Positions 12,821-36,809 of a stretch of DNA of 64,000 nt are shown one piece after another (the first letter of the stretch is position 1; each line of letters begins with the position of its first letter). Both the position numbers and the translations under genes were made by a program. The notes below the pieces were generated by a model. The model ran no database searches. It was not told the DNA's origin and saw only the letters and a program-made list of their open reading frames with translations. The stretch covers positions 31,623 to 95,622 of the IMG/VR virus record IMGVR_UViG_3300037339_000405; one strand, 5' to 3'. The stretch comes from a virus.

Positions 12821-13003
12821 CTAACGAGGTGGGTCAATGCTCCTGATAGGAAGCTTTTGCATCTGTAACCATCCCTTGGCCTGAGAAATGGCGGCATCCC
12901 TCTCCGGAGTATGCGTCTGCTGCTTCAGCTTGGCTATGTAACGCCGTATCTGCTCAGCAGGGGAATACACGGACACTTCCGGGTCAATCAAGCTGGCGAT
13001 CAT
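12821..13003 (-). CDS. small hypothetical protein directly after MuF (possible partner of its C-terminal domain)
   Basis: ATGA overlap with the MuF stop. Confidence 0.45.
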   Translation of the reverse strand: MIASLIDPEVSVYSPAEQIRRYIAKLKQQTHTPERDAAISQAKGWLQMQKLPIRSIDPPR

Positions 13004-16000
13004 GCGATAGCCTCCAAGGGCTCGTGAATCAAGAAGGACGGGTTTATGGGAGGCATCTGCAGGCTCTTCAACACATCAATTCGTGCCTGCACTGCCTTCA
13101 CATCGATCAACCCTTCCACCATAGCCACATCATGCAGGAAACCGGGTCCTGCCTTCTCCACCACATAATCAAGCAACCCGTACCGATGCATCACCTGATT
13201 CACGAAATGCGTATGAGCAACAGCTGCCACATTCTCATGCACCCTTCCAGCTTGCACAAACGGGCGTATCGCAGAATAAAATTCTGCCGCAGCTTTCTGG
13301 TACACATCCCGATAGAGAAGGTTAAATTCACGCATCGCATCGATATTACCCATGAATTCTTTCACCCTCCCGGCATACGTCGTGCCTTCAGAAGTCAGCG
13401 CGAGCATCTTGTCAATGCCCCAATTGGAGGCCAGCAGCATGTCCATGTCACTCAAGCTCCTCCCCATCGGGTGATTGTGGTACACCGTGGTACCTGACAG
13501 GCGCGCGGCCTCCTCCATCGTGAAATCCACGTAAGATTTGGTGCCCCCCTTAGTCAGCACCTCTTCGCCAGACCGATTGAACGCATAGAGGTATTCGCGT
13601 TCCGCGCTATCGGGCTGGTTGAGCACGTACTTGGAAGCTGTCTCATGAGCTTGCTGTACCGCGCTACGCCCGGTAAGAGGAGGCGCGGAAGTAATCTGCT
13701 CTATGCCTAGATCCGTGTGCACCGGCTGCTTGATGCGATCTGGAAATGCGGCTTGAAAACTGGGAGTGTCTTCAATGTTTGGAACCTGCCCGAGCGGTAC
13801 CAGCTGCCCCCTGCAAAACGGATGAAATGGGGGGATATGCCAATTGCGGGCCACCACTTCTTCTTCGGTCATGTTGCGCAGCTTCTCTACGTCACTGGCT
13901 CGCTGACTAGGCCACGACTGCAACGTGCGAAGCTCCTGCGGATCGTCCACCGAGAGCACTACGTCCAACGTGTTGCGCGCTGAGACCACCGTGAAGGTGC
14001 GTCCATGCATCGCACGGCACACCGGACAAATCTTGTTATCCAGCTGCTCGTTTATTGCGTAGCGTTCCACCCCGAGAATCTCTGCCTCGGACGTGAACCC
14101 ATACGCGGCCACGCGCGTAGTGTGCAGGGCGCTCACCATCTGCATGTAACCGCGCCCACCATCACGGAAGCTTACGAAAGGTTGGATCAAGCTCTTGGTA
14201 AGCTCTTTGCTTACACGCCGGAGATGCAGGGGGTAGCGCGGCTGCCCTTCTTCTTGCCATTCCGCGCGCCAAATCACCGTCTTTCTATCCAGTGTGCGCA
14301 CGGTCTCTACCACATCCCCAGTCCACGCACGCCATTCCCCAAGAGAAGATACCTTGTACCCACGCGTGCCTTTCTTGGGAGACACTTGCAAAACCTTTAT
14401 CTCTTGGCGCCCTATATTCTTGAGAGCTTCAGCATCCGTCATGAAGAACAACGGATCTAAAGCGCCCCCCGCATTCTCGCGCCCTGCGAGGAACCGTTGA
14501 ACAAAACGCATGCGCGTTTCCGTCTGCTCTACTTCGGTAGCAGGCCGTGAATAGAAACCTTCCCCCTCGCTCTGCCAGCTACCACCCAGTTTCCCCGCAA
14601 CAATCTTGGGATCAGTAGAGAACGGGGTGTCTTTGGGCCAGCGCTTGTCAAGTGGGCCGATAAACATCACTGTACGATTACGTGTCGATGCATCTAATTC
14701 CAATGGGATGCCGCGTTTTGAAACAGCGCCTCCCCAGATCCTAGTGATGAAATCCATGTAAGGCTGTTTGGCCTCTTCGCCCAAAGTGGCTTTGCCGATC
14801 AAGTCTTCTAGGCTCACTTTCTCGTTGAGAACATCGTGCATCAACAGCATCGCATTCTCGATTGCAACAGCCGTGCCCTTGTCTTCAGTGAAGCTGATAG
14901 TGTCCGAAGTCCCCCCACCTAGCCCGCGTCCAAGACCCTGACCTAGCTCCTCGCGCGTCTTTAGCCCGTGCTCCATGACAGCAGAGACTGCCGTAGTAAC
15001 GTGGTACAACTCATCGGGCAGGTTTTCTAGCTTCTCAGCCCCCGACAGGTTTGCCTGCAGAAAAAACCCCTGCTTCGCTGCGCTCTCCGGAGTTATGGTA
15101 CCCATGGCAAGCGCTCTCATCATCTGCGCATCCCACGCACGCTCCTTCACGCGCTTCTTGTCAAAGAGTTCATGCACAGCCTCTGCGCTACCTAACCTTT
15201 CCACTATCTGATCGTAGTTCAAGCCCGCGACACCAGCATCTTCCATCATACTAGCGTCAAACCGCTCTCGTTTACCTTCCGGCGGCTCATTGCTGCGCGC
15301 CCACTGACCCCCCTCCGAAGTACCTGCAGGACTACGCGGCTGGTCGGGATCGTATTTTGTAGTGGCTCTACCCCTTGAAAACACCACATCGGAAGCCCGC
15401 CATACAAAGCGCTGCCCGATCCTTTTACTCGGTGCGGCTGATTTCAATGCACGCTGCTCCTGAGAAACTATCTCAAGCATCACCATTTTGCGCTTGATGA
15501 TCTCGTCCTCAGTAACCCGCATGCTCACGGGTACATCCTCCTGCACGGACAACACCCTGAACTTTGTCCCACGTGCAAGGATGAACTCATTCTCTGTGCC
15601 AGCGCCCGTGCCCAACCCTTTGTAACCTGCGGGCACAATAATACGGGCAACCACTTCTCCCGGAGTAAATGCGAAGTCCGCTGCCTTGCTAGAAGAAAGA
15701 CTAGTGGAGGTGAAGCCGTTGTCTACAAACTCATCTCCCGCAGCAACTGCCTTCGCAAGCGGACCCCCCATGCCACGGTACACGGCAAGAGACTCTTTAA
15801 GAGGGGGTGCGCCTTCTATCGCCTTGTCTAAGGCCGCAACGTGCTCTTTGGTATAGCTCAAAGTTTCCTCTGACCCTAATCCACTTCTCAAATACTCGTT
15901 AATCACTCTGTAACCAATGCCAGTGTAGTTGCCCAGAGCAATACCTTGTGCTGCTGGCAAGTTGGCTGTGTAGTCTCCATAGTTGTCGGAAAGAAACTCT

Positions 16001-17148
16001 CGGGCTTTCTCCCTCTGGTCCCCGGGATCAGGCCCCACCTGCTCCAGAACATCCATTACACCTGTGTCAGTCCAGCGCCCTGCTTCATCACGCGGTTGGT
16101 CGGGGTCGTATTTTGTGATGCTAGGATTTTTTGGGTCAAACGCTCCGGTGTTACCTAGTGCAGACTTGATCTGCTCGGGCTTGAATACTCCCCAAGTCCA
16201 AGATTTACCCTCTTTCACCTTGATCCCATCGTAACCAGCCTTCTGTGCCGCTTCAACAAATCCCGGAGAGGCGATGATTTGATAAGCCTTGAACTTCTGC
16301 GGCACCCCGTCCACTTCCTCATCTCCGTACTTGCCGACAGTGAACTCCAACCCAGTCGCCTTTCTGGCTTCCGCATACGTCATCTTGTCGTTCATGTTGA
16401 ACTTCAAGGTGATCGGCTTCTTCACGGAGAGCCACACCGGATAGACCGTCGGGTACTGTCCTTCATTCCACGACTTTGCCCCCGAATACTGGTCAGCGAG
16501 AACGGAAGTCACTCCGAACCACGCCACTGGATCTGTTCTGAACTCCTCTATCCCCGTCTCTCCAGTACCGTGTAAAACCACCAACGGGGCTCCTTTGGGA
16601 TCACGAACCTTGCTTTCCCCAAACCACTCGCGGAACTCGGGAGTGCCGGTGACAGTCCAGCGCCCCTGCTCGTCTCTCGGCTGATCTGGATTGAATTTGG
16701 TGATCCGCAACTGAAATGGATCAACCTCGGTGGGACCGAAATTGGTGGTGTCGTCACTGGCTTCCACGTCTGCAATCAATTGCAGCATATCGTCCCGCAG
16801 CAGTTCCTCAGCATCCTGAAGGATCTGCCTGACGAGCAGCAGGCCCGCCTTGTTGACGACATCGTTGAGCTTGCCTGACCCGGCCGCTGTGCTGCTCGCG
16901 CGCTCGGTCACGCGCGTGGCACCCACAAGCAGGGCCGCGCGTGTGTAGTACTCGATGGACTTGAGATTCTCGTCTACAACTGTCTGCAGGCTGATTGAAT
17001 TGGCGATCTGCGTTGCCAGCGCGTAGTCGCCCTTCTGCAGGGCAGACTTGACCTTACGTCCGATCTCGTTGGAAACCGTGAACCAGCTGCGGGTCAGCTT
17101 GTTGGCAAGCCCCTGCTCAACCGACAGGTAGGCTTCAATTGACGCCAT
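13000..17148 (-). CDS. MuF (SPP1 gp7-like) head morphogenesis protein carrying three inserted ART-like domains and a C-terminal JAB-like domain
   Basis: MuF motifs D.KICPVC..MHG and PPFHPFCRG; HGT..YPVWL..GYDGI..F.PEQIKS (ART-PolyVal-like); VYRG/FTSTS/ENE (VIP2-like ART); LYHVT..V..HGL (ART-like); HNHP...SLS..D (JAB-like); follows portal. Confidence 0.88.
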   Translation of the reverse strand: MASIEAYLSVEQGLANKLTRSWFTVSNEIGRKVKSALQKGDYALATQIANSISLQTVVDENLKSIEYYTRAALLVGATRVTERASSTAAGSGKLNDVVNKAGLLLVRQILQDAEELLRDDMLQLIADVEASDDTTNFGPTEVDPFQLRITKFNPDQPRDEQGRWTVTGTPEFREWFGESKVRDPKGAPLVVLHGTGETGIEEFRTDPVAWFGVTSVLADQYSGAKSWNEGQYPTVYPVWLSVKKPITLKFNMNDKMTYAEARKATGLEFTVGKYGDEEVDGVPQKFKAYQIIASPGFVEAAQKAGYDGIKVKEGKSWTWGVFKPEQIKSALGNTGAFDPKNPSITKYDPDQPRDEAGRWTDTGVMDVLEQVGPDPGDQREKAREFLSDNYGDYTANLPAAQGIALGNYTGIGYRVINEYLRSGLGSEETLSYTKEHVAALDKAIEGAPPLKESLAVYRGMGGPLAKAVAAGDEFVDNGFTSTSLSSSKAADFAFTPGEVVARIIVPAGYKGLGTGAGTENEFILARGTKFRVLSVQEDVPVSMRVTEDEIIKRKMVMLEIVSQEQRALKSAAPSKRIGQRFVWRASDVVFSRGRATTKYDPDQPRSPAGTSEGGQWARSNEPPEGKRERFDASMMEDAGVAGLNYDQIVERLGSAEAVHELFDKKRVKERAWDAQMMRALAMGTITPESAAKQGFFLQANLSGAEKLENLPDELYHVTTAVSAVMEHGLKTREELGQGLGRGLGGGTSDTISFTEDKGTAVAIENAMLLMHDVLNEKVSLEDLIGKATLGEEAKQPYMDFITRIWGGAVSKRGIPLELDASTRNRTVMFIGPLDKRWPKDTPFSTDPKIVAGKLGGSWQSEGEGFYSRPATEVEQTETRMRFVQRFLAGRENAGGALDPLFFMTDAEALKNIGRQEIKVLQVSPKKGTRGYKVSSLGEWRAWTGDVVETVRTLDRKTVIWRAEWQEEGQPRYPLHLRRVSKELTKSLIQPFVSFRDGGRGYMQMVSALHTTRVAAYGFTSEAEILGVERYAINEQLDNKICPVCRAMHGRTFTVVSARNTLDVVLSVDDPQELRTLQSWPSQRASDVEKLRNMTEEEVVARNWHIPPFHPFCRGQLVPLGQVPNIEDTPSFQAAFPDRIKQPVHTDLGIEQITSAPPLTGRSAVQQAHETASKYVLNQPDSAEREYLYAFNRSGEEVLTKGGTKSYVDFTMEEAARLSGTTVYHNHPMGRSLSDMDMLLASNWGIDKMLALTSEGTTYAGRVKEFMGNIDAMREFNLLYRDVYQKAAAEFYSAIRPFVQAGRVHENVAAVAHTHFVNQVMHRYGLLDYVVEKAGPGFLHDVAMVEGLIDVKAVQARIDVLKSLQMPPINPSFLIHEPLEAIA

Positions 17149-17152
17149 GGAG

Positions 17153-19300
17153 CTATTGCATCATCGTGTCGCCGCAACATGCCGCGATCTCGGCCAGTCC
17201 AGCGGGATCTCTACCAATAGCCGGGAACGTCTTCGCCGCCAGCAGCTGATTCAATAGCTCGCGCTCGTGTGGCGCGCACAGATCCACCTTGTGAAGAATG
17301 GAGGCTTTCTCGATGGAGGAGTACTCGCGCGAAGGCTCATCCAGTTCCATCACCTCGGCCCACTGATTGGCGAGCACCAACAGATCCGTAGCAGTGTAGC
17401 CGGCCCGCTTCACCCCCGCTACCGGAGAGCCCACACCCGGCTGCACCGCAACTCCAACCCCGGCGGGCTTGGGTGGGGCAATCTTGCCATCAACAGCCGC
17501 TTGCGCAAATGGCACCAACTGCGGCGGAGCGTTCAAAGCCGCAGCCTGCGGATCGTACTCAAGGGTCAGGTTGGCAACCTGATTAAGGTCCTTCATAAAG
17601 CTCTCAGCGCTGGCCTTGTCCTTGCCCATCTCAAGCCCTTTCAGTTGGGCATCGATGTTGCGCAGAGTGAGAGGCTTGCTGACCATCTTGAATTTGAAAG
17701 CCCCTAGCGCCCGGGAAATCGTGCGGTTAATGATCTCGTCAAACTCCTCCCGCTCAGGCTGAAACACCTGAGCCTCAGTCACCATGTAGCTCGTCATCGC
17801 CGTGGCAAACGAGTAGTCCTGCGCCTCTCCTAGAAACAAGGGGTGCAGTCTGAAGCCACGCCTGACACGGTTCTCGGCATTCTTGTCGTACTCCTGAAAC
17901 ATCGCATCGTTCTGGCGTGAATCCCCAAAGCGCTCCACCTTCACATCCACCTTGCCAGCCGCATCAAGAGAGCCACTACTACTCTGAGCCTCTACTACCG
18001 CCGCGCGCTGCTTACTCTTGGCGCCACCTGACAAGTAGTGCAACAGCTGCTCGCGCATGGTCTCCACCACTGACCCGCCTTGAATGAAAATAATCGCTGG
18101 CGGGATGCCCCCCGCGTCAAAAAAATCTAGGTTGAACAATTCACTCTTGCGGGAACCAACCACACTGGGCATCTGATTGATCCATCGCGGCATGCCGTAG
18201 TGAGTGCGGTAATCCAGATCCACTACAAAATGAATGACCTCGCTCGCCATGTTATCCACGGGTACCGTTTCACCCGTTACAGCCCAGTCACCCTCTTTAC
18301 GCTTTAGCACGCGCGAAGCACCAAACTCCTTGTAGAAAATCTGTTGGCTGCCGATGATCTGCACATAGCGGCGCTCCCGCTTGAGCATGCTGACCGTGCT
18401 CTCTTTACCAGAGCGTTCAATTTTCACCTCCACTTCCACAGGCTGATCAAGCTTGACCAGCCGCAGTGAAGGTGATTCCAGACTGCGGCACAGCACCACG
18501 TCATTGGCCGAGTTACGAATCACTTCCAGATAGCCGTTGCCGGTCATCTCCAGATCAAAGCGCAATGCGCGCCTGATAGTAGTCATGCTCATCCCGGGGT
18601 ATGGCTCACCGTAGAAGTCCTTGAGCATCTGCTCTTCAGGATCGACAAACGGCGGGCGCACGTCTGGGGGAGGCTCTGCGCCGGGGGCGCCCGGCAAGCT
18701 TTCCGTTGTGGCCCCTATACCTTCTGGCCCGGGGTTCTGCCCCGCAGGGTCCTGCCCCGCAGGGTCCTGTGGAGGTTTCTGACCGTTCCCAGCGGGCGGG
18801 AAGGCTTTGGTGGCGGGCAGCCCCGGGATCTGATCCTGACCGTCTACAGGCGGCTGCTTGAGGCTCTCAGGAGTCTTGGAGCCCGGCGGCAACTTGATCG
18901 GTTTGCCTTCCGAGTCCTGCGGGCCATTAGCCAATCTATCCTGTACTTCCTGCCACTTTCGCAGCTTCTTTTCCCTGTCTGCCTTCTCTTGGTCAACCGG
19001 CTCGACTGTGAAGCCCGTGCCATCAATGTTCACCTCCATGGCCTGCACACACTGGAGCAGTGTGTTGTTCGCGTAGCACAGCGCAATCAACGTCTCCGGA
19101 TTGAACGGAGGCTGTATCGCCATCTTGTTAGACTGCGCGCTGGTATACAAGGATGAAAACTGATCCTCGTATGTCAGAGGTTGATTGGCAATCAACTCGT
19201 TCTCGGCGGAACGTTTGAATGCCTTGGAAAAGTGAACCGCAATATCGGCCGAACTACTACCGGATTTGCGGACGGGTATTGCTTTGTGTGCTTTAGCCAT
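17153..19300 (-). CDS. portal protein (PBSX-like) with Pro/Gln-rich insertion
   Basis: DLEMTGNGYLEV.R, EVIHF....YG.P.W, N..FF..GG.P and F..HP.FLG motifs. Confidence 0.9.
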   Translation of the reverse strand: MAKAHKAIPVRKSGSSSADIAVHFSKAFKRSAENELIANQPLTYEDQFSSLYTSAQSNKMAIQPPFNPETLIALCYANNTLLQCVQAMEVNIDGTGFTVEPVDQEKADREKKLRKWQEVQDRLANGPQDSEGKPIKLPPGSKTPESLKQPPVDGQDQIPGLPATKAFPPAGNGQKPPQDPAGQDPAGQNPGPEGIGATTESLPGAPGAEPPPDVRPPFVDPEEQMLKDFYGEPYPGMSMTTIRRALRFDLEMTGNGYLEVIRNSANDVVLCRSLESPSLRLVKLDQPVEVEVKIERSGKESTVSMLKRERRYVQIIGSQQIFYKEFGASRVLKRKEGDWAVTGETVPVDNMASEVIHFVVDLDYRTHYGMPRWINQMPSVVGSRKSELFNLDFFDAGGIPPAIIFIQGGSVVETMREQLLHYLSGGAKSKQRAAVVEAQSSSGSLDAAGKVDVKVERFGDSRQNDAMFQEYDKNAENRVRRGFRLHPLFLGEAQDYSFATAMTSYMVTEAQVFQPEREEFDEIINRTISRALGAFKFKMVSKPLTLRNIDAQLKGLEMGKDKASAESFMKDLNQVANLTLEYDPQAAALNAPPQLVPFAQAAVDGKIAPPKPAGVGVAVQPGVGSPVAGVKRAGYTATDLLVLANQWAEVMELDEPSREYSSIEKASILHKVDLCAPHERELLNQLLAAKTFPAIGRDPAGLAEIAACCGDTMMQ

Positions 19301-19353
19301 AGTGGCCCCCTGAATAGCCAGCACAGCCTACCGGATTTTGGCCCTGCTAACAA

Positions 19354-21702
19354 TCAATCCAGTGTGAGCTTCTTCAGTTCCGCAAGATTCGACCCCACTT
19401 GGCAATCCACCTTGAAGGTCAGCTGAGGATGCCAGCCCACTTCATGGAACGGCAGATTCTCCATGATCTCCTTGGACAAGCGCGCGTAGTACTCAAAATT
19501 GTTCTCGGGGAAATAGAACAACAGCTGATCGTGCACCATGCCCCACACCGGCATCACGGGAAACAGTCTGCGCTGATCCACGATTGCCGTGGCCCACAAT
19601 GCCATGTCACTAAGGGTTCCCTGCACCGGGCTATTGATCGCCTGCCGCCCCGCCTTGCTGTTCATGTACCTGTCAGCGGAATGAATCAGCGGCAAATGCC
19701 GCACGCGCCCCAACGGGCTATAAACCTTGCTGTGCATGCGAGCGAAAGCCTTCTGCTCCTCATGCCACGGCCCCAGCCTACTATATAGGCTGAAGAAAGC
19801 ATCTCGGGCTACAGTAGCCTCCTCCAACGTCATCGCCACGCCATACACGTACCACGCGTAATCCTTGAAACCCTCGGCGCTCATTCCATACAGAAGCCCA
19901 AAATTACCCGCCTTAGCCTTCTGCCGGACCAACTCGAACAGCGCGGGATTGGTGCGCGCCAGTTCCAGAAACTGCTCAAAATTCTTGTACCCTGCAAGCT
20001 TGGCGCCGGTCATCGCATGCAAATCGATGCCCTTGCGATACGCAGACAGCATGGTGGGCTCCTCGGCCAGACACGCCGCGATGCGCAGTTCCCCTTGACT
20101 GTAATCATTGGACCCGATCAGCCAGCCTTTCGGCGCCACCAAGCAACGCCGGATCTTCCCGGCCCACTTGGTGTGCTTGGGCACCGTCTGCCCGGGTGGG
20201 TCCTTGACACTGATGCGCCCGGTATTGGTCCCTCCCGCCGATTCATGATCATCCCCAGCGAACAGGAAATGCGTCGGATGAAACCGGCCATCGGAACGCA
20301 GATGTTCCAAGAAGCCAGTGACATAGGTGTTCAGTGTCTTGGTGGCCTCACCGTACTCATCCAGCAGCTTGATAAACGGCCCTGCCTCCTCGTGCTCGCT
20401 GAACATCTCCAGATGTTTCATCGCCGTGGAGGGCTTGTTGGTCTGCGCTGTCTTCATCTTGGGGCGCAGGTTGAACCCCGTGGGACTGAACATCACATCG
20501 TGCAGGAAGCTTGGCTTGGTGAGATTGATCTCCCCGTCTTTATCGGTGTGCCGCAGAATCAAGCGCGGGCTCACCATCGACTTCACCTCTTCAGTCTTCT
20601 TGGCGATAAACGCGCGCACGTCGGCCTCAAGCTCACGATAGGCTTCGCGGTCCACACACCAGCCTACCCGTTCAACCTTCTCGTAAGCGCGTGCAGCCGG
20701 ATGCAGAATCGTGGTGTAGAAACGAGCCAGCCTAGGCTCCTGCAGCAACTCCTGCCTGAGTGGCTCTATGACGCGGTAACAAGCATCTGTGTCGCCGCCG
20801 GCATACATCAGAAACCGGTCAGGATCTGCAGCTAGCGCAAGATCCATGCGTGACTTGTCCACCATACGGTTGAAGCCATCATCGTAGCCGCCAAGATCCG
20901 TGTATATCTTAGCGTGCACGTTGAGACTGTTGCTGCGATTCTCATCCACCAGTGAACCTACGAGCATGGTATCCATGCGAAACGTGGTGCACTCGGTGAT
21001 CAGCCACAGCTTGGCAATCCAGTTCAAATCAAACTTGAGATTGGCGCCATACAACGCCACGCGCGGGTCAGTGAGTATGAAATTGAAGTCGGCGCGCAGC
21101 CCCCACCCGATGCGCCGGCACGCCTTGCGATTAGCGAACTTGACCGCATCAGCCGTGCCTGCCTTGACAGTAACCTGCGCACTGACGATGTACCCAAGTG
21201 GATTGTAGGGGTCAACTCCCCGTGTTTCCAGATCCAGAGTGGTACGCACCGGTTTGCCCGTGCGTGCAAACTCGGCCTTGATGAAATCAATTGCATCGGT
21301 GAAATCTTCCACCCAGCGGTACTGACCCATAGGTGGTATGACAGTGCCCGTGTGCACCAGCCTGATCGCCGTGCGCACGTCCATCATGGTGTCCACCGCC
21401 AACGCGTGGTCCACATCGATGATCTGTGCCGCATAGGTCAACAGGCATTGCGCCCCACACGGCAGCGCAATCGGCTGCGTGCGCAGGCTGCCTATCGTGC
21501 GGTTACGCGGCTTGATTACCCCTGCGTCAGAGATCAACTGACGCGCGTTAGCGCCCATGGCAAGCACCACGTCTCCCGTACCAAACTCAGGGAGGTGATC
21601 GCCTACGGACTCGAATCTATGTGGAGTGCTGGTCCCACTCAACGCTGGGGCCACCACCTTCTTCAGGTGGTGCGGCGTATCCGGGGTCCACACTATGAGC
21701 AT
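19354..21702 (-). CDS. polA: DNA polymerase, family A, with 3'-5' exonuclease
   Basis: Exo motifs DLETRG, NLKFD, YAGGD; polymerase motifs DYSQGELR, RQKAKAGNFGLLYG, VHDQ; start reassigned to MLIVW. Confidence 0.95.
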   Translation of the reverse strand: MLIVWTPDTPHHLKKVVAPALSGTSTPHRFESVGDHLPEFGTGDVVLAMGANARQLISDAGVIKPRNRTIGSLRTQPIALPCGAQCLLTYAAQIIDVDHALAVDTMMDVRTAIRLVHTGTVIPPMGQYRWVEDFTDAIDFIKAEFARTGKPVRTTLDLETRGVDPYNPLGYIVSAQVTVKAGTADAVKFANRKACRRIGWGLRADFNFILTDPRVALYGANLKFDLNWIAKLWLITECTTFRMDTMLVGSLVDENRSNSLNVHAKIYTDLGGYDDGFNRMVDKSRMDLALAADPDRFLMYAGGDTDACYRVIEPLRQELLQEPRLARFYTTILHPAARAYEKVERVGWCVDREAYRELEADVRAFIAKKTEEVKSMVSPRLILRHTDKDGEINLTKPSFLHDVMFSPTGFNLRPKMKTAQTNKPSTAMKHLEMFSEHEEAGPFIKLLDEYGEATKTLNTYVTGFLEHLRSDGRFHPTHFLFAGDDHESAGGTNTGRISVKDPPGQTVPKHTKWAGKIRRCLVAPKGWLIGSNDYSQGELRIAACLAEEPTMLSAYRKGIDLHAMTGAKLAGYKNFEQFLELARTNPALFELVRQKAKAGNFGLLYGMSAEGFKDYAWYVYGVAMTLEEATVARDAFFSLYSRLGPWHEEQKAFARMHSKVYSPLGRVRHLPLIHSADRYMNSKAGRQAINSPVQGTLSDMALWATAIVDQRRLFPVMPVWGMVHDQLLFYFPENNFEYYARLSKEIMENLPFHEVGWHPQLTFKVDCQVGSNLAELKKLTLD

Positions 21703-22177
21703 CGTCAATCCTCTTCCACTTCTTCTTGATGTACTCGTAATGTGCCAGCAGACACTGCGGCACTTTCCAGATGATGTTGCGGTATATGTCGGCAAGCGAG
21801 CGATTCGTTATGTCCCGATGCCCAGACAGGAACATGCCCCCTTCAGGAAACACGGCGTCACTGTCCCGGATTTTAGCGCCGTCCAACACCAACACGGACT
21901 GACGATCAGTAGCCTTACTGTGCACGACCAACAGAAACAAATCCACGCCCACATGCACCAGCATCCATAGTTGGGACCCAAGAATACTGGAAGCCTTTAC
22001 CATCAACGTAAACTCCAAGTCTACCTCTCCCGGAAGGCTCTCCATCTGCACAGTAAGCGCCCCTGAGATCGGCAAGCTCACAGCACCTACATTCAGCTGA
22101 TTGCGATCCACCGTCAACGGCATCTGCAAAACGTCAGACATCTTCTTAATGTGCTCTAGGATCACAGGAGTGCTCAT
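21617..22177 (-). CDS. hypothetical protein
   Basis: Tiles with neighbouring genes; no recognised motif. Confidence 0.5.
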   Translation of the reverse strand: MSTPVILEHIKKMSDVLQMPLTVDRNQLNVGAVSLPISGALTVQMESLPGEVDLEFTLMVKASSILGSQLWMLVHVGVDLFLLVVHSKATDRQSVLVLDGAKIRDSDAVFPEGGMFLSGHRDITNRSLADIYRNIIWKVPQCLLAHYEYIKKKWKRIDDAHSVDPGYAAPPEEGGGPSVEWDQHST

Positions 22178-26683: not shown

Positions 26684-28873
26684 TCAACTGCACGAGAGCA
26701 CCGATGTGGCCAATTGCCTACGCGACACGCCCACCGTAACCACCGACGCATACTTTCCTTTGGGCAACCCTCTCGCGGGGGAAAACAACGTCAGCTGCTC
26801 GGCAGCACTCTGCTTCAGTTCCAGTACTTTAGTAAGGGCGCGCGGATCAAATTTCACACCGCCCTCTTGGTAGTCAAGCCACACCAATCCAGTCTGACTC
26901 ACAAGAGATCCAATATCCTCCACCACGTCCATCACGCGATACCCCATGGCACTCAGTTTCGCAACCAGCGGAGGCGTGAGCAGATCGTGCGGCAGAATCC
27001 AGAAATTCTTCACCGGGTGACTTTTGGCGAACTCAATCAGAAACTCAATCTTCTTTATGAACACGTGCACTGAATTCGGCAGAATCTTAGGCTCCAGTGT
27101 CTGCAACAGATCGTAGTCACCACCACCGTTAACTTGCAAGCACAACAGAGTCATATCAATCACCATGGTGCGATTGCCAGCAGCCTTCAGCACCTCCAGA
27201 AAATTCGTGCCCCGGAACCCGTCGATCTCCATAGCATATGAAGCAAAAAGCACCTTGTCACCTGCTGCAGCCACTTCAGCTGCATTGGTGCACGTCTCGA
27301 ATACGCCATACCGGGTGAACAGCATCGAATAAAACTTGTCCACCTCACTACTCATGCCTGCCAACACCGGAACCTCAATATCCACCCACACGCGCCCAGT
27401 GTCACCGCACAGTGTCACCTTGCTACCCTTAGTGATCGCGCTTATGTCACCGCATCCCACCACGCACGGCAGATTCATATCACGCGCAACCACAGCAGCG
27501 TGCGCTGTTGAACCCCCAGTGCGGGTGACGATCCCGCGCGCTGCGCGCATACCCTTGATATCGTCGGGGTTGGTTTCGTCAGTGACCAGAATCACGCCTT
27601 CAGCACTCCTCTGCTCAGCTTCTTTGGAAGAGAAAACCGCGAACCCCGTTGCTACGCCACCGGAAGCAGCAATACCCTTCAAGGTCTCCTTGCCAGTGAA
27701 CGATGCCGGGATAACAGGCTTGGCAGCCTCAAACAACTGTGCAAGTGTCACGTGTTTGACTGCCATATCCAGATCGATCAGATTGGACGCCGCCATCTCA
27801 GTAGCGATACGCAGCGCAGCCCTCGCAGTACGCTTGGCAGCACGGGTCTGCAACACATAGGTGAGCCCTTTCTCTACAGTAAGCTCCACATCCTGTGCAT
27901 CACCGTTGAAAGCCTCCAATTTCTTGACCGTGGTGAACACTTCTTCCGCCACGTACTGATCCCACACGGCTAGCTGATCGATTGGCATGGGAGTCTTGAT
28001 GCCCGCCACCACATCCTCTCCCTGTGCCATCGGAAGAAACTCCCCCACCACTTTGTTTTCGCCGGTAGAAGGATCACGCGAGAATGCGACCACGGTACAG
28101 CTGTTCACGTCCAAATTGCCGAAAACCATCTGCTGGATCACCACCGCCGTGCCAAGATCATGCGGGATGCCATTCATATCACGGTAGACTTTTGCGCGCT
28201 CGTTACCCCAACTGGCGAACACCGCGCATATGGACTGAATCAACTGGCCCTTAGCCTTCGGAAATTTCTGGCCGGTCTCCTTCTCGAAAAGCTTGAAGCG
28301 CTCGCGCAACCCAAGGTTCTGAAACTTGTGGCGCTCGATGCCGAATACCACACTGCCGAACATCTCAACCAGCTTGCCACGCACTTCGTCAGCGCAACTC
28401 TGCCCCAAACTGGCTCTCCAATGACTAGCGTTGGTTTCATCGATGCCCACGTTGAGAATTGTGTCCATCATGCCGGGCATAGAAAACTTGGCGCCGCTAC
28501 GCACGCTCACCAGCGGCATCACGTCACCCACCCCCTGCATGGTATTGATTATTTGCGGCAGCAGTTCGTTGAGAAGTGAGACTACCGCATCAGGGTCCTG
28601 CATATAGAGCTTGCAGGCCGTCACCGGAATGATTATGGCAGGAGGAACTCGAAACCCAGCCCGGTGCATACGCACCAGACCGTAACCCTTACCCCCAAGT
28701 AAATCCAGATCCTCGGGAGCGTTATCCAACGTGTAGAACGGGAGCCCTTGCATCTCGCACTCCTTTGCCAGACCCATGCCTGCAATGATACCAGATTGGT
28801 ACTGCTTGTCAAGCTCCTCCGCGTAAGCCTGCTGCCATGATTTAAGTGACGCCGGCAGCTTCTTCTTGACCAC
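26684..28873 (-). CDS. PPDK-like dikinase: ATP-grasp + phospho-His swivel domain + unrecognised C-terminal domain
   Basis: LLGGKG, LVSVRSGAKFSMPGMMDT.LN, AQGEDVVAG, QDVE.T, LQTR, GGSTAHAAVVAR; no pyruvate-binding TIM-barrel motifs seen. Confidence 0.88.
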   Translation of the reverse strand: MVKKKLPASLKSWQQAYAEELDKQYQSGIIAGMGLAKECEMQGLPFYTLDNAPEDLDLLGGKGYGLVRMHRAGFRVPPAIIIPVTACKLYMQDPDAVVSLLNELLPQIINTMQGVGDVMPLVSVRSGAKFSMPGMMDTILNVGIDETNASHWRASLGQSCADEVRGKLVEMFGSVVFGIERHKFQNLGLRERFKLFEKETGQKFPKAKGQLIQSICAVFASWGNERAKVYRDMNGIPHDLGTAVVIQQMVFGNLDVNSCTVVAFSRDPSTGENKVVGEFLPMAQGEDVVAGIKTPMPIDQLAVWDQYVAEEVFTTVKKLEAFNGDAQDVELTVEKGLTYVLQTRAAKRTARAALRIATEMAASNLIDLDMAVKHVTLAQLFEAAKPVIPASFTGKETLKGIAASGGVATGFAVFSSKEAEQRSAEGVILVTDETNPDDIKGMRAARGIVTRTGGSTAHAAVVARDMNLPCVVGCGDISAITKGSKVTLCGDTGRVWVDIEVPVLAGMSSEVDKFYSMLFTRYGVFETCTNAAEVAAAGDKVLFASYAMEIDGFRGTNFLEVLKAAGNRTMVIDMTLLCLQVNGGGDYDLLQTLEPKILPNSVHVFIKKIEFLIEFAKSHPVKNFWILPHDLLTPPLVAKLSAMGYRVMDVVEDIGSLVSQTGLVWLDYQEGGVKFDPRALTKVLELKQSAAEQLTLFSPARGLPKGKYASVVTVGVSRRQLATSVLSCS

Positions 28874-30745: not shown

Positions 30746-30805
30746 TCGCCCTCCTTGGCTAAACACTACAGTCTTATGATACCACGTACAGCAGGATTGT
30801 CAAGC
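30746..30805 (-). repeat. 60-bp promoter+RBS cassette, copy 1 (identical to 33374-33433; partial copy 40332-40374)
   Basis: Exact direct repeat containing TTGACA-N16-TATCAT and AAGGAGG. Confidence 0.9.
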
Positions 30806-31055: not shown

Positions 31056-31063
31056 GCTGTCTC

Positions 31064-32191
31064 CTAACCCAATGGGGCCTTTCTCACTGAAATCCTCGGC
31101 AAGCGGGTCGTCACCGGCTTGGCTCTGACCCCTTTACCAGTAGCGCTGTCGTACTCAGCAACTTTAATCGCCGGCTTGTCTCTTGCCACTTCGTTGTTGA
31201 ACACAGACCATTTCTCAAAGTGAGTAGACAGCTGCTCAAAATTCTTCTCATTGTTGAAGCCACTTAGAATTGCTGAAGGAGGAACCAGCCTCCCACGCTG
31301 ACCCGGTCCCTTGCCTCTCCACCTTTCCACCGCACGCTGCGCCGCTAGCTGCGGGGGCAAATGGACGAAAGCCCCCTGTACACTGTAACCAGCCTTGGAA
31401 AAACTGGTTATCCTATCTAAAGCTGGGTCATAGCTCTTCATCGTAGCGTCAAGAACCACGTTATACCCGGCAGCTTTTGCTCTTCGTGCCGCCATATCAA
31501 AAAGATGCCCGCTTTCCTCATGGTAAATGGCAGCCTTGGATTCCCAACCCTTGACTTTGTCACGCTCGGCCAGCCTCTCCTTGAAGTGATCGGCATCAAT
31601 CACAAGAGTCTTAGCCGGATCATACAAATGCAGAGACACTGGCCGAGAATCACTGCGTGCACCGCTTTTTCCACTGCCTCCACGCCCCCCCAATACCAAA
31701 GCCGTTGGTGCAACACCCACCGGCGGTATAGCGTTAGCGGCACCCTTGAAGAACTCAACAAGGATCTCATCATGCACCTTCGTGCGTTCCGCACTAAAAG
31801 AATCTTTCGTGGCCCCGGCATGAACCATGTGAGTACTTTTGCCGGCAGCTATATCTGCGTCCACTGCGGCCATTTCACGCAGAAACTCCGCATGATCCGC
31901 CTTGCTTAACGTAGCAAAGAGGATCTCGTCTTCTATTTCAGCCCTCCCAGACTGGGTTTCTACTCGCGGGTCGGCGGACTCATTGAATAGAGAAGACGCG
32001 GAACCTCCGGGGGTGACCCTCTCTCCCGGCCGCGCATTGATGGCTTCTCGTACCTTTACCGGGCGCTTGCGCACCATCGCGCCACCAACACTGGCGCCTA
32101 ACGATTTAATCCACTTACCATATTCATCCCTAGGCTGGCTGGGGTCGAATTCCTTACGGACGTTCTGGAAAATGGAAGGGATGTTCAACAT
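31064..32191 (-). CDS. zeta-toxin-like P-loop kinase with N-terminal FDPSQPRDEYGKW tag
   Basis: LGGRGGSGKS, IDAD.FK, YHEES, VVLDAT and R..R..GR.VP motifs. Confidence 0.85.
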   Translation of the reverse strand: MLNIPSIFQNVRKEFDPSQPRDEYGKWIKSLGASVGGAMVRKRPVKVREAINARPGERVTPGGSASSLFNESADPRVETQSGRAEIEDEILFATLSKADHAEFLREMAAVDADIAAGKSTHMVHAGATKDSFSAERTKVHDEILVEFFKGAANAIPPVGVAPTALVLGGRGGSGKSGARSDSRPVSLHLYDPAKTLVIDADHFKERLAERDKVKGWESKAAIYHEESGHLFDMAARRAKAAGYNVVLDATMKSYDPALDRITSFSKAGYSVQGAFVHLPPQLAAQRAVERWRGKGPGQRGRLVPPSAILSGFNNEKNFEQLSTHFEKWSVFNNEVARDKPAIKVAEYDSATGKGVRAKPVTTRLPRISVRKAPLG

Positions 32192-32295
32192 CAGGCAATC
32201 TCCATAGGACTGCCCGCCATTATACGCAGCCAGCGGCTCCTAACCAGCGCTGCTAGAAGGCTCCCCTGCCAACATTTGCACTTGCTTGCACGCTA

Positions 32296-33006: not shown

Positions 33007-33372
33007 CTAGCGCAGGTAAACGGCCCCGTAAGCACTCACGGCACTCACCCCTGCATCCTCGGCAAAGATGTTGCCCCGGGCATGCTTGGCGGGCGTCCGC
33101 CACGTAGCGGCCTTCAACACGTCCCCAGTGCCCATGTCCACGAAACAGTACGCGGAACGACTCACCGAGCCCCCAAGATAAAGGGACCACACCCGGATGT
33201 ACTTGCGGCCAACCTCAATCTCCAGTGCCTTCTTGCACGCGTCTATTTCGTACTGGGCATTGTTCAAAGCCAGCTTGTGCCGCGCCCCCTCAAGGAATCG
33301 CTTCATTTTTTCCGCGAACCCCGGTGCAAGCTTGGCGATTTCAGCCGCTTCGTTGTAATCCTTGGATTTCAT
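33007..33372 (-). CDS. hypothetical protein
   Basis: GRKYIRV..S..CFVD..TGD.LKAATW..PAK..RGNI; first gene behind promoter cassette copy 2. Confidence 0.7.
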   Translation of the reverse strand: MKSKDYNEAAEIAKLAPGFAEKMKRFLEGARHKLALNNAQYEIDACKKALEIEVGRKYIRVWSLYLGGSVSRSAYCFVDMGTGDVLKAATWRTPAKHARGNIFAEDAGVSAVSAYGAVYLR

Positions 33373-33373
33373 C

Positions 33374-33433
33374 TCGCCCTCCTTGGCTAAACACTACAGT
33401 CTTATGATACCACGTACAGCAGGATTGTCAAGC
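33374..33433 (-). promoter_or_regulatory. 60-bp promoter+RBS cassette, copy 2
   Basis: Identical to 30746-30805. Confidence 0.9.
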
Positions 33434-33708
33434 TGCGCAGGGTTAGTGATTCAGCACCTTTGTGAAATCAGGTGCGGTCATTTCATCGTACAGGGCAATT
33501 CTGAAACTATGCCACCCATCTTGTGAGGCACGATCTTTAATCGCTTGAATATCGGCTGGCGTATGGCAATGCGATGACAAAATGTCTTCGCGCCACTCCT
33601 CCGTGACCCCTTCAGGCAATCCGTAAACAAGAAATGTCGGCATGGTAGGCTCCTTCTACGCTGCTTTACCACTCCATTGTACCAGGTTACTACCGTTTGT
33701 CAACTACC

Positions 33709-34557
33709 TCACGATACTATGGACTGCCCCTTGGCCAGCACTGCAGCCCCCAAAAGCGCTATCAGCGCCTGCTCTTCCTCGCTAGTGATAAGCTTAGACT
33801 CCTGCTCGAAAGCCAGCGTAGGCTGCGGAGACCCGTCCACAGCGACTTTGGAAGCCTTCGCAACAGCGTTGACCTGCTTAGTCACCGACTTCTTGATCGC
33901 CCCACCTGCGGCCTGCCACTGATCCGAAAGCCCATAGTTGGCTGCGCAAACCGGACCAAAACCAACCGCCACACTGTTCTCCTTCTCCAACGACTTGCCA
34001 CAAAAGCAGCAGGCTCCACTCATCTTGCCGAGCTTGATCACTACCTCAATCGGATTAGCCGCGAACTCGATCAACAGCTTGGCTGCGTTGGCGAACGCTT
34101 CCGGCGACACCTTGTATCCCTTGGAGAACGCCCCTTGCTTGCTGATGACCCCGTAGAACACGTTGTCAGGGTATTTGTGCCCATCAGTCACCATCAACTG
34201 CCCGGCATACTTGCTGCCCGCACCAGCAATGGACAGTTCCAGCTTCCCACCCTCCACTGGCAAGGTGATTGACGGGTACTTGAGCTTTTTGTTGGCAGTG
34301 GCGAACATCTCGTACAGTAGGGTTGCGCCACCCAACTCCACCTTAATCAGTGGGGGTGCCGCCTCTTTCTTGTTGCCCAGTGCAGCCTCCATCATGCGAT
34401 CAAACCACGGCTTCTGCTTCTCAGTCAGCCCCCCAAACTTCAAAACCCCGTTCGCAAGGCTCATAGCGAATTGCTGGTCCTTCACAGACAAACTACCCAT
34501 TGCATCCAGCAGCATCTTGGCTTGCTCTTTCAGTGGAAGGCTCTTGTACTCAATCAT
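33709..34557 (-). CDS. DUF6011-like Zn-finger protein
   Basis: C-terminal CCFCGKSL...SVAVGFGPVCA; own TTGACA-N16-TACAAT promoter at 34590-34617. Confidence 0.7.
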   Translation of the reverse strand: MIEYKSLPLKEQAKMLLDAMGSLSVKDQQFAMSLANGVLKFGGLTEKQKPWFDRMMEAALGNKKEAAPPLIKVELGGATLLYEMFATANKKLKYPSITLPVEGGKLELSIAGAGSKYAGQLMVTDGHKYPDNVFYGVISKQGAFSKGYKVSPEAFANAAKLLIEFAANPIEVVIKLGKMSGACCFCGKSLEKENSVAVGFGPVCAANYGLSDQWQAAGGAIKKSVTKQVNAVAKASKVAVDGSPQPTLAFEQESKLITSEEEQALIALLGAAVLAKGQSIVS

Positions 34558-34617
34558 CTCCGCACTCCTTTGCAGATCACAATACATTCATTGTATCACG
34601 TTTGCTTCGTTTGTCAA

Positions 34618-35466
34618 CTACTGCGACAGATCGACCCCCACCACTACCGGCTCGCCCTTGGCACGGTACACCTTGCGCACCGTGAACTTGCTCCCAACTG
34701 GCAAGATCAATTCCGTCTCATTGCCAGCCTTAGACATACCACCTACATAGAGACCCTTCTGGCCCTTCTTGACATTGATTGCAAGCAGAAACACCTTCTC
34801 TTGTAGCGTCTTATGCTCCAATCCAGAAAACTCGATTGCCTTCGAGCGTTTGATAGCCGTGGACGACATGGCCTTACTCTCAATTGTCTTGCCCACGAAT
34901 TCTTCCACGTTCTGTGGAGTCATGCCTAACGCCTGCCCACGCCCAGCAGTTACCGCGCGATAGGTAGTCAAGTCCGTCTCGATCTCCTTCGCAGCCACTG
35001 CTGCATTCAACACTTGAGCCCTCTTCAACCAAAAGGCTTTGATCTCATCTCCTCTTGGATTTGAAGGATCAACAATAGCTCTGTTCATGTGCCGGAACCC
35101 TGCCCGGGTGTAATCATCCAAGGCATCTTTTTCATCTACCAAAAATTCCTGAATGTATTGACGATGTGACTCAGATATCGCATTCACCACCTCGGTCTCT
35201 TTCAGCCGCTCAGCTGTACGGAGTTTGTTGTAGATTATCCCTGCCCGCGCTGCCTCTTTAAGCTCTTCCATCCTCTCGGCAGAGATCCACATGTTTGGCA
35301 GGCCAAGCATCTTCTTCATGCCAGCCACTTCAGCAGCTACTTGCGCACCCACCTCCTCGTCGGTAGCGGTAACTGCCCCGGAAGAAATGAACTGACCCCC
35401 TTCAGTCGTGCCCACCGGGGCGCGCGGTTGATCCGGGCTATAGCGAAGAACATGTGCGTACATCAT
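34618..35466 (-). CDS. VIP2-like (R-S-ExE) ADP-ribosyltransferase with N-terminal YSPDQPR..EGGQF tag
   Basis: DYT..GF..MN, TYRA, SSTA and ETELILP.G motifs. Confidence 0.85.
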   Translation of the reverse strand: MMYAHVLRYSPDQPRAPVGTTEGGQFISSGAVTATDEEVGAQVAAEVAGMKKMLGLPNMWISAERMEELKEAARAGIIYNKLRTAERLKETEVVNAISESHRQYIQEFLVDEKDALDDYTRAGFRHMNRAIVDPSNPRGDEIKAFWLKRAQVLNAAVAAKEIETDLTTYRAVTAGRGQALGMTPQNVEEFVGKTIESKAMSSTAIKRSKAIEFSGLEHKTLQEKVFLLAINVKKGQKGLYVGGMSKAGNETELILPVGSKFTVRKVYRAKGEPVVVGVDLSQ

Positions 35467-36809
35467 TGAACCAAATCCACATGCATCACAACCCGGGGTA
35501 CCTTTCTATCCCCCACCGCCACTGACTCTTTCGTAGCTTTACGCACCACGTAGGATGCATTGCGTGGCAGCACCACTTCGTCTTCCGCACTCACGAGAGA
35601 CACGGTTTTGACAAACAGTCCTTTGGCCTCTTTCGGGGCATTGATCACCAGAAGCACTTCCCCAAAGCCTTTGGCTGAATCAGCATTCACAGACGTGCTC
35701 TGAAACGCAGGGTCCTTGATCACCTTACCCACTGAACCAAGGGCATCCTCCATAGAAGAGAAAAGCCTATTAGACCCTATTTTGGCACCACGAAACAGTT
35801 GCACATCCTTACCCAGACTCGTCTTTTCCAAAGCCTCATCCAGTGCCTCTATCTTTTGGCGCACTACCTTCTCGTAGTGAGAGTTCCCATCTGGGTAGTC
35901 CTGTTCCCACCAATCCTTCCTACCTGCTAGAAGCTTGTTCATCGCGCCATACGAACTATCAGTGTAGTCAATTACGGCTTCTCGCAAGTTGGTGGGCAAA
36001 GCCTTTAGCTGCGCACGGTGTTGTGTATCAAATTCGCTGTAGGCTTCTGTACGATTAACCGGAGACGTAGCTATCCCTTGCCACTCATTGATGATGCGCT
36101 CTTCATCGTAGCCATACAGATTCACTGCACCACCTGCACCACCTGTAGCCGCGAACTGCCCCCCTTCCGAATTACCCGCTGGGACACGTGGCTGCTCTGG
36201 GTCGTATCGCAGAATCTCTAATAGAGTGGACGCCGGCTCTTTCACACAAACCCCCCACGCAGTGTCAGCATCTTCTTTGGTAGTGAGATCCACCACCCGC
36301 GCGTTGATCTTCTTCAACCCTTTCTGCACCGCCGCCACCACCCTATGATGGCCGTTCATGATCCACGTCTCGCCTTTGTAACGGACGGCCTGCACCGGCT
36401 TGTCCAGCTGAGCCTGATCACCACTAATGAAGGACTTCACGCGCTCTTTGTTCACCACACTCTGCGTGACCACCAACTTGTCTAGGGGCACCTTGGAAAC
36501 ACGTAGCGTCTTGAAAAAAGAGGCACGCGCCTTGAGGTACTTGCCAATGTCTCCCTTGGCAGGGTCAACACCTATCTTGGCATTCAAGGCATCGAAAAAC
36601 GGCGCTTTCGAGTAGGGAACAAAGCGGGCGTTGTCCAGCGTCGTGTCGATCCGCTCTACCTGCTTCGGGTCATCCAACGTGCGGTCCGGCTTGTAGTCCA
36701 CGATCTTGCGATCAAGCTCACCGTACCCATCAAGGGTTAAGGCTCCGCCAGTGAACCGCCCACGCTCATCATGGTTGGGATTGAACTTCAAAATGACTGC
36801 GAAAGTCAC
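35463..36809 (-). CDS. two-cassette protein: ParB/Srx-like domain + VIP2-like ADP-ribosyltransferase
   Basis: TQ...P..V...IMNGHHR (ParB-like); YT..SY..MN, LFRG, FQSTS, EDEV.LPR (ART); a tag precedes each domain. Confidence 0.85.
   Translation of the reverse strand: MTFAVILKFNPNHDERGRFTGGALTLDGYGELDRKIVDYKPDRTLDDPKQVERIDTTLDNARFVPYSKAPFFDALNAKIGVDPAKGDIGKYLKARASFFKTLRVSKVPLDKLVVTQSVVNKERVKSFISGDQAQLDKPVQAVRYKGETWIMNGHHRVVAAVQKGLKKINARVVDLTTKEDADTAWGVCVKEPASTLLEILRYDPEQPRVPAGNSEGGQFAATGGAGGAVNLYGYDEERIINEWQGIATSPVNRTEAYSEFDTQHRAQLKALPTNLREAVIDYTDSSYGAMNKLLAGRKDWWEQDYPDGNSHYEKVVRQKIEALDEALEKTSLGKDVQLFRGAKIGSNRLFSSMEDALGSVGKVIKDPAFQSTSVNADSAKGFGEVLLVINAPKEAKGLFVKTVSLVSAEDEVVLPRNASYVVRKATKESVAVGDRKVPRVVMHVDLVQ

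Follow-up and report, generated by a model that had tools for sequence, protein, structure and literature searches.

The DNA analysed here (the window, 64,000 nucleotides) covers bases 31,623-95,622 of a 95,622-bp phage record from IMG/VR (IMGVR_UViG_3300037339_000405), which has direct terminal repeats and is rated complete, and nearly all genes of the window are carried on the minus strand. Four of these genes contain a recurrent tag, a peptide of roughly 16 residues (14-18) of the form [YF]-x-P-x-Q-P-R ... G-[RKQ]-[WF], which occurs seven times, always in frame and on the minus strand: three times in P0001, a predicted head protein of the MuF family, twice in P0002 (a ParB-like domain plus an ADP-ribosyltransferase, ART) and once each in P0003 (a stand-alone ART) and P0004 (a zeta-toxin-type kinase). 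A six-frame scan of the complete 95,622-bp genome with a regular expression, and a scan with a profile, returned these seven copies in coding frames and none besides. A fifth gene, which codes for a protein of 131 residues, begins with a sibling of the tag, bringing the total to eight tagged modules across five genes.

Tagged genes and the split MuF protein

The tagged genes and their parts are the following (window coordinates, strand in parentheses):

13000..17148 (-), P0001, 1382 residues, predicted MuF-family head protein with three tagged cassettes and a C-terminal extension
16750..17148 (-), P0001 residues 1-133, MuF N-terminal helical half (BLASTP to P0161, P0162 and the L316 MuF protein, E 6e-12 to 3e-07)
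16654..16707 (-), P0001 residues 148-165, tag 1 with the preceding R-I-T-K site
16138..16602 (-), P0001 residues 183-337, ART-PolyVal domain (Pfam PF18760, E 5e-19)
16069..16122 (-), P0001 residues 343-360, tag 2 with the preceding S-I-T-K site
15535..16002 (-), P0001 residues 383-538, exoenzyme-type ART domain (Pfam PF03496, E 3e-18)
15301..15366 (-), P0001 residues 595-616, tag 3, a long variant ending in E-G-G-Q-W, with the preceding A-T-T-K site
14191..15291 (-), P0001 residues 620-986, 365-residue domain behind tag 3 (no Pfam match)
13774..14190 (-), P0001 residues 987-1125, MuF core with C-x-x-C and P-P-x-H-P-x-C-R (phrog_30193, phrog_9907, phrog_115; BLASTP E 1e-56 to P0161)
13003..13773 (-), P0001 residues 1126-1382, C-terminal extension of 257 residues with a JAMM-like H-x-H-x7-S-x-x-D pattern (regular expression)
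35463..36809 (-), P0002, ParB-like plus ART
36750-36809 (-), P0002, 8-residue leader and N-H-D variant of the tag
36249-36509 (-), P0002, ParB-like domain
36153-36218 (-), P0002, second tag
35508-36008 (-), P0002, ART domain
34618..35466 (-), P0003, stand-alone ART (Pfam PF03496) with an 8-residue leader and a long-variant tag (35389-35466)
31064..32191 (-), P0004, zeta-toxin-type kinase (Pfam PF06414, E 3e-19), leader and tag in residues 1-28 (32108-32191)
11777..12172 (-), 131-residue protein with the sibling tag, between the protease and scaffold genes

Residues 1-133 and 987-1125 of P0001, or beyond, align with the stand-alone homologues P0161 and P0162 and with MuF from a related phage (L316, 9974-11296), at E 1e-56 to 3e-07. 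Since these stand-alone MuF proteins (300-440 residues) are collinear with both halves, the approximately 850 residues that separate the halves in P0001 represent an insertion of three cassettes, namely tag 1 with the ART-PolyVal domain, tag 2 with the exoenzyme-type ART and tag 3 with the 365-residue domain. The Pfam model of MuF (PF04233) stays below its threshold on P0001; the minor head protein models phrog_9907 and phrog_115 match residues 1022-1118, the C-x-x-C and H-P-x-C-R motifs align with those of PF04233-positive MuF proteins (alignment A2), and P0001 can be assigned, by sequence similarity, to the Phage_Mu_F/SPP1 gp7 head protein family. A Pfam search of the C-terminal extension gave no match and did not confirm a JAMM-like family, and Atlas look-ups of this extension and of the 365-residue domain returned nothing above noise.

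A preliminary description of the locus, made from the sequence alone, had reported seven copies of the motif in four genes, and all of them were found in frame at the places it gave, in agreement with the whole-genome scans. It lacked the eighth, sibling-type module in 11777-12172, and it was mistaken in placing tag 3 directly before MuF, because the 365-residue domain lies between them and runs into the MuF core. Its two further proposals, that selection acts on the peptide and that only a short leader precedes the tag in the stand-alone genes, agree with the following data. Among the seven tags, 66 of the 107 pairwise-identical residues (62%) use different codons, which points to selection on the peptide and not on the DNA. 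The leaders of the stand-alone genes have 8, 8 and 13-14 residues, and since in-frame stops upstream limit them to 15-21 residues, the N-terminal placement of the tag is robust. Two of these genes (P0002 and P0003) and the 131-residue protein have the leader pattern M-x-[YF]-[AV]-x-[VI]-L-[KR] in common, and the residues immediately before the tag are [I/T/V]-[T/L]-[K/R] in seven of the eight modules, the zeta kinase having V-R-K-E.

The synonymous differences between the copies also rule out a DNA-level repeat or a recombination site. Nor is the tag a piece of the domain that follows it, as it precedes unrelated folds, lies outside every Pfam and PHROG envelope and is not docked on the ART domain by AlphaFold. 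In an AlphaFold2 model of P0003, computed from a shallow alignment of ten tag-plus-ART sequences and therefore supportive only, the ART domain is confident and residues 1-34 lack secondary structure (predicted local distance difference test, pLDDT, 31-45), which would suit a free and disordered linear motif.

Distribution of the tag and of its sibling

A degenerate DNA pattern written for eight core residues matched at 57 IMG/VR loci. The residues flanking this core, although not specified by the pattern, recur in the matches (an aromatic residue before it in 64 of 66, G-x-[WF] after it in 65 of 66), so that the tag is not a product of chance. A profile of 34 positions (A1), built from 55 tags and searched against 1.84 billion protein cluster representatives, matched 4,129 proteins at a cut-off of E<=1e-3; the number falls to 701 at 1e-10 and to 53 at 1e-30. 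A single protein can have as many as 13 tags. Consensus and spacing were derived from the 671 tags in the best 150 of these 4,129 proteins. The consensus is hydrophobic-x-[K 43%, A 15%, E 8%]-[Y/F 86%]-[D/S/N]-P-[D/N/S]-Q-P-R(99%)-D(92%)-[E/D]-x-G(98%)-[R/K]-[W/F]-[T], with a Gly-rich run behind it. From one tag to the next the median distance is 248 residues; first tags have their median at position 32 and last tags theirs at 292 residues before the C-terminus, which describes a grammar of tag, spacer and one domain, repeated, in which the first domain is tagged too.

Pfam scans of the tagged reading frames place tags around MuF and directly behind portal domains of four families (Phage_portal, Portal_Mu, Phage_portal_2 and Phage_portal_3). 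The domains behind the tags include ART domains of three types (ART-PolyVal and exoenzyme-type ART among them), DRAT-like, topoisomerase IB, zeta kinase, ParB, InPase, Acb1, 2H/LigT, GNAT, HNH, cytidylyltransferase and a lethal-factor-like zincin, together with many unassigned ones. That the tag recurs before such different domains, in phages that have MuF and portal fusions, bears out the early suggestion of a modular element common to MuF-linked cassettes and stand-alone enzymes. The diversity of enzymes behind the tag and its company of MuF, both foreseen for a profile of this kind, were found as well: MuF (PF04233) is present in 9 of the 13 larger tag-bearing records and in all five of those that are at least 90% complete. 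The tie to XkdF heads was not upheld, as S78 and DUF2213 proteases occur too. Complete tag-bearing genomes have from one to seven tags each.

Head proteases themselves are among the tagged proteins. The sole tag of G009 (L072:3232-5460) stands before a DUF2213/phrog_530 'head maturation protease', and in G007 (L070:458-2236) a tag stands behind the XkdF domain of a 593-residue protein; in both G007 and G045 the order is XkdF domain, tag and a C-terminal part of 250-390 residues.

Anti-CBASS (cyclic-oligonucleotide-based antiphage signalling system) Acb1 domains (PF23474, E 6e-35 and 1.5e-29) were also observed as tagged modules in giant phage polyproteins (L041:2017-4296; P0044), hinting that the capsid can deliver ready-made Acb1.

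When 50,697 records of cultured phages were searched with the tag by tblastn, there were weak matches only, to cluster-H mycobacteriophages and a Nocardia phage, and a search in plasmids found none. In bacterial genomes, 18 of 120 loci from a pattern scan are true in-frame tags; the record titles, read for part of these 18 loci (not for five, L165-L190) and not to be taken as a measure of host breadth, are mostly of Alphaproteobacteria, with one each of Polyangiaceae and Pseudonocardiaceae. In the mycobacteriophage DrLupo and the Nocardia phage P3.1 (L060:5648-6094; L061:5716-6144) the tag-like protein is very basic, has the motif at its start and is annotated 'capsid maturation protease', and a JAB/M67 peptidase gene follows directly. 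In cluster-H mycobacteriophages, for example DrLupo and Barnyard, the gene of this basic protein has both JAB and MuF genes as neighbours. The profile search of the PDB returned one marginal match (E 0.044), chain Af of 9rku, from the baseplate of phage 7-7-1, in which residues 83-99 of a 454-residue 'putative tail biosynthetic protein' read Q-P-R-D-x-x-G-R-F and then Gly/Ser; the paper on this structure holds nothing useful about the stretch, which could be chance or a relic of the tag in a tail protein.

The sibling was recognised in the first 28 or so residues of the 131-residue protein, which are made up of an 8-residue leader ending in I-L-R, a motif of the G-H-P-F-R-G-N-Q type and a Gly run. 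A pattern scan for this motif matched at least 119 IMG/VR loci and, among the matches listed, there are up to nine copies per locus, two reading frames contain both tag types and the consensus is hydrophobic-x-K(64%)-G-D-[FY]-x-G-H-P-F-R-G-N-Q-[WYH]-T, followed by a Gly-rich run. This layout is that of the first tag, and in G045 (L201) and G065 the sibling joins an XkdF domain to a C-terminal part. In IMG/VR the G-H-P-F-R-G-N-Q motif is another tag family, and a very common one.

The head protease and the possible roles of the tag

The head block of the phage consists, in transcription order, of a family-A DNA polymerase, the portal protein, P0001, an XkdF-type protease, the 131-residue protein, a scaffold-like protein and a capsid-like protein. 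Besides the two tagged genes given above, it contains:

19354-21795 (-), family-A DNA polymerase
17153..19324 (-), portal protein, 723 residues, without tag (phrog_12; PF04860 below its cut-off)
12169..12897 (-), prohead protease of the XkdF type, Peptidase_S78_2 (Pfam PF14550, E 1e-26; phrog_15223, phrog_3017)
10475..11725 (-), scaffold-like protein, 416 residues, without tag (phrog_27672)
9503..10441 (-), major-capsid-like virion protein, 312 residues, without tag (phrog_1623, E 5e-104)

The protease at 12169..12897 is the candidate cutter of the tagged proteins. Indirect evidence for a cut comes from the residue directly before the tag. In proteins with three or more copies, agreement at this position is 0.66 within proteins versus 0.23 between them (kappa 0.56), the highest of the variable positions (0.17-0.45 for the others), and the positions after the tag carry no lineage-specific signal. 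Head-protease families (XkdF, S78 and DUF2213) were then assigned by Pfam searches of whole records, with the majority pre-tag residue taken for each record and obvious duplicates merged. Lys or Arg is the majority residue in 25 of the 29 records with XkdF or S78 and in none of the six with DUF2213, in which it is Asp, Asn, Glu, Gly or Ala; the covariation holds for both tag types (Fisher's exact test ~1e-4, our own count), the records being not phylogenetically independent and several of the Pfam matches weak. A Lys/Arg site before the tag also accords with HK97, whose S78 protease cleaves the capsid protein behind Lys103. Because the pre-tag residue covaries with the head-protease family, a cut by the prohead protease right before the tag, with a phage-specific P1 residue, is the best-supported step of the proposed mechanism, the support being indirect.

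The preliminary description had proposed such a cut of the leader, at a Lys/Arg site. The cut before the tag gains from the covariation; the residue is not general, since Lys or Arg, present throughout this phage if the Lys at -2 of the zeta kinase is counted, precedes only about 47% of tags at large and is lineage-specific.

Other cutters and cut sites were considered and set aside. The tag as a general recognition signal of XkdF is ruled out, as XkdF accompanies the first tag in only 5 of 34 records and this phage has its capsid, scaffold and portal proteins untagged. A JAB/JAMM peptidase as the universal cutter is likewise ruled out: P0001 has a JAMM-like motif and, in two actinophages, tagged proteins have JAB genes beside them, but among the 57 other tagged loci only one has such a motif, detected by regular expression only. 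The zincin-like metallopeptidase domain MPTase-PolyVal (PF18818) is absent across the whole genome of this phage and was set aside as its cutter. Cleavage behind the conserved Glu or the final Trp/Phe is disfavoured, and the N-terminal edge preferred, because the Glu is not invariant and no lineage signal lies behind the tag. Searches for S77, ClpP and Mu-like protease families in tag-bearing records gave no usable matches, with the Mu-like and S77 models silent in controls too; the S77 model PF03420 had no match in 37 tag-bearing records and none in control genomes either, and hence carries little weight.

On balance, we lean slightly towards the tagged unit being a capsid-cargo cassette that is cut by the head protease before the tag and leaves the head with the DNA. 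Each cassette would comprise a short phage-specific protease site (hydrophobic-x-Lys/Arg in this phage), the tag of 14-18 residues, a flexible spacer and an enzyme domain. The precursors (the MuF protein with its three cassettes, the ParB-ART protein, the ART, the zeta kinase and the 131-residue protein) would enter the procapsid, where the XkdF-type prohead protease would cut immediately before each tag and free single domains, each starting with a tag, which would later leave the head with the DNA. In thousands of proteins the tag is linked to genes of the head (portal, MuF, head protease), which speaks for cargo.

Several observations weigh against this reading. The capsid, scaffold, portal and protease of this phage had no tag in genome scans by regular expression and profile, and the tag is consequently not a general substrate signal of the head protease. 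The genome of a related phage, G088, which is rated complete at 92.4 kb, encodes homologues of the portal, MuF, XkdF, scaffold and capsid proteins (E 7e-138 to 5e-19) and has zero tags in the same search that recovers all seven in this genome; such heads, therefore, do not need the tag, and the cassettes are optional additions to head machinery that functions in their absence. In the actinophages DrLupo and P3.1 the tag-like motif starts 2-5 residues after the Met, so that hardly any leader is left for removal. In the zeta kinase the tag is preceded by Glu at -1 and Lys at -2, and the kinase gene ends an operon headed by a near-consensus sigma-70-type promoter, among replication-type, early-looking genes. 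Four XkdF/S78 records are exceptions to the Lys/Arg rule (two of them with Lys at -2), and the covariation with the protease may partly reflect shared descent. Moreover, cleavage, packaging and ejection of the tagged proteins are all inferred.

As for the tag itself, a role as a common handle is preferred, one that would be held by a conserved head component (MuF or portal) and would keep or position the cargo in the head. Since unrelated protease families serve one tag, it is unlikely to be a protease recognition element, and the common denominator of the tagged proteins, a life inside the head, favours a handle for loading, retention or positioning. Roles as an ejection leader, on the host side or as a multivalent sticker are possible. 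Taken further, the tag and its sibling might form a cargo code that does not depend on the protease, crosses lineages and is read by a conserved part of the head, for which MuF is the best candidate because it is present in all complete tag-bearing genomes checked. We regard this extension as doubtful; if it were true, a local protease site plus the tag would make any protein an injected effector, and the tagged proteins of metagenomes would be a ready-made catalogue of injected anti-defence and takeover enzymes.

Two other explanations appear unlikely, and to the same degree. The tag could be purely a loading address that binds an interior component of the head and brings the attached protein into the procapsid, with cleavage incidental or absent. 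This would explain why it is N-terminal on stand-alone enzymes and stands before or on head proteases that must enter the procapsid, why it is disordered with a flexible spacer behind it, as in cargo peptides, and why MuF is found in 5/5 complete tag-bearing genomes. However, portal-effector and MuF-effector fusions with a single tag keep it in full though they need no address, polyproteins have up to 13 tags where one would do, no partner was found and the dependence of the pre-tag residue on the protease family is left unexplained. The original idea that an exposed tag is a signal for head loading or ejection found no support for related reasons: the tag is also present on single-tag portal fusions and on head proteases, which are not ejected.

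Alternatively, the tag could be processing punctuation only, a presentation element on the primed side or a hinge for the separation of domains, with the stand-alone copies as leftovers of cassette shuffling. Consistent with it are the regular spacing, with one domain per tag, and the way in which the pre-tag residue varies with the protease family. Tags also stand where protease meets scaffold and where portal meets effector, places at which cuts would be expected. Nevertheless, the same tag goes with unrelated Pfam protease families (XkdF/S78 and DUF2213), making a shared recognition element unlikely; N-terminal tags are under purifying selection and are the rule, as the median position of the first tag indicates; and the capsid and scaffold substrates of this phage are untagged.

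A function after injection is improbable. The tag would bind a conserved host factor, or its aromatic N-terminus would be an N-degron limiting the lifetime of toxin-like enzymes. After the proposed cut 86% of tags would start with Tyr or Phe, and such N-termini are destabilising in bacteria; in addition, many cargo domains are toxin-like (ART, zeta) and true tags occur in prophages of several phyla. Against this, the sibling would start with Gly, the acidic second residue is a poor fit for ClpS, tags are found on head proteases and scaffold-like parts that have no business in the host cell, and no result points to a host partner. Very improbable, finally, is that the tags are multivalent stickers which, with their Gly-rich spacers, gather the internal proteins of the assembling head into a common condensate around portal and MuF, an idea that suits the many copies per chain, the aromatic and charged residues, the flexible spacers between them and the presence of tags on portal fusions, MuF, proteases and cargo alike, but that is pure inference and is at odds with the many genomes that have a single tag.

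Known systems and genomic surroundings

The capsid-targeting sequence (CTS) of phage T4 is a short N-terminal peptide of unrelated internal proteins (IPI-III and Alt), including an ADP-ribosyltransferase; this conserved leader is removed by the S77 protease gp21, which cuts after Glu in L/I-x-E, and the cargo is injected with the DNA. A possible counterpart of the removed leader is the 8-residue pattern ending in Lys/Arg in P0002, P0003 and the 131-residue gene, whose removal is suggested by the covariation only. Unlike the CTS, the conserved part lies here behind the proposed cut and is used inside polyproteins too, across phages with different portal and protease families. There is no sequence likeness, and the protease of this phage is of the XkdF type (PF14550), not S77. 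Short disordered peptides with flexible linkers also load foreign proteins into HK97-fold shells in encapsulins, as cargo-loading peptides read by the shell interior, and in phage P1, in which DarB has an N-terminal packaging signal and loading is Hdf/DarA-dependent. These peptides are an analogy of working principle only, with no sequence relation to the tag, and differ from it in not being repeated as punctuation in polyproteins.

Among the closest described systems are also those in which unrelated enzymes are attached to head proteins. Polyvalent proteins (Iyer, Burroughs, Anand, de Souza, Aravind 2017, PMC5512222) are large head-block proteins that string unrelated enzymes (ART-PolyVal, ART, ParB, zeta kinase, InPase, 2H and Topo IB) onto MuF or portal domains and are predicted to be packaged and injected, with zincin-like metallopeptidase domains, frequent but not obligatory, proposed as processing agents; the text of that paper mentions no linker, spacer, glycine or tag motif. 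Like them, P0001 (ART-PolyVal, ADPrib_exo_Tox and MuF) and P0002 (ParB-like and ART) have several unrelated effector-type domains, and P0001 contains MuF and lies between the portal and XkdF protease genes, with P0002, P0003 and P0004 outside the head block; the tagged proteins of other phages match the description as well. This phage differs in having no MPTase-PolyVal. The recurrent tag and its sibling, the occurrence of the tag in stand-alone enzymes and in head proteases, and a pre-tag residue linked to the protease all go beyond that description. MuF polymorphic toxins (Jamet et al. 2017, PMC5576092) have an N-terminal MuF domain, one C-terminal toxin and an immunity gene and belong to temperate phages; motif, linker and cleavage are unmentioned in that paper. 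P0001 resembles them as a MuF head protein with toxin-like domains for which the phage head would be the delivery vehicle, and departs from them in that its cassettes sit between the MuF halves (1-133 and 987-1125) and not at the C-terminus. The counterpart of the immunity gene might be the ADP-ribosylglycohydrolase gene found upstream of the ParB-ART and ART genes; none adjoins P0001.

The system is thus of a known kind, that of capsid-carried polyvalent effectors with a T4-like processing logic. A full-text literature search for the core letters and related wording found no description of the tag, with a coverage that was incomplete and a description elsewhere possible, and the conserved tag family and the protease-matched site before it appear to be undescribed so far. 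Phage proteins carried in the capsid act before phage gene expression, which makes them prime weapons for anti-defence and takeover, and they are hard to spot from sequence. With a label that over 4,000 protein clusters contain, such cargo (here Acb1-type, 2H, ART, Topo IB and many unassigned domains) could be listed from sequence alone, and a head-protease site right before the tag is a testable rule for the cutting of polyvalent proteins into parts. In laboratory systems the tag might become a handle for loading chosen proteins into phage heads, and MuF, a widespread head protein, may gain a candidate function.

The three stand-alone tagged genes (P0002, P0003 and P0004) are situated 12-17 kb upstream of the head block, among replication-type genes. 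A homologue search with P0003 matched P0003 itself and nothing else. Four near-consensus sigma-70-type promoters (11/12 matches, extended -10), with TTGACA, 16 nucleotides and TATCAT or TACAAT, lie in this region inside repeated blocks of up to 60 nucleotides, and one of them heads the operon of the zeta kinase. The neighbouring features are:

37047..38042 (-), ADP-ribosylglycohydrolase, without tag (Pfam PF03747, E 2e-35)
30776-30803 (-), sigma-70-type promoter
33404-33431 (-), sigma-70-type promoter
33676-33703 (-), sigma-70-type promoter
34590-34617 (-), sigma-70-type promoter

The ADP-ribosylglycohydrolase gene lies just upstream of the tagged ART genes, and its product is possibly an eraser or self-protection partner of these enzymes. 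Directly downstream of the tagged ART gene, a 292-residue protein with a DUF6011 motif (33709-34587, minus strand) has a strong promoter of its own. A 729-residue protein (26684-28873, minus strand) combines pyruvate-phosphate-dikinase ATP-binding and phosphoenolpyruvate-utilizer mobile domains (phrog_18609, 'kinase'), an unusual enzyme for a phage replication block.

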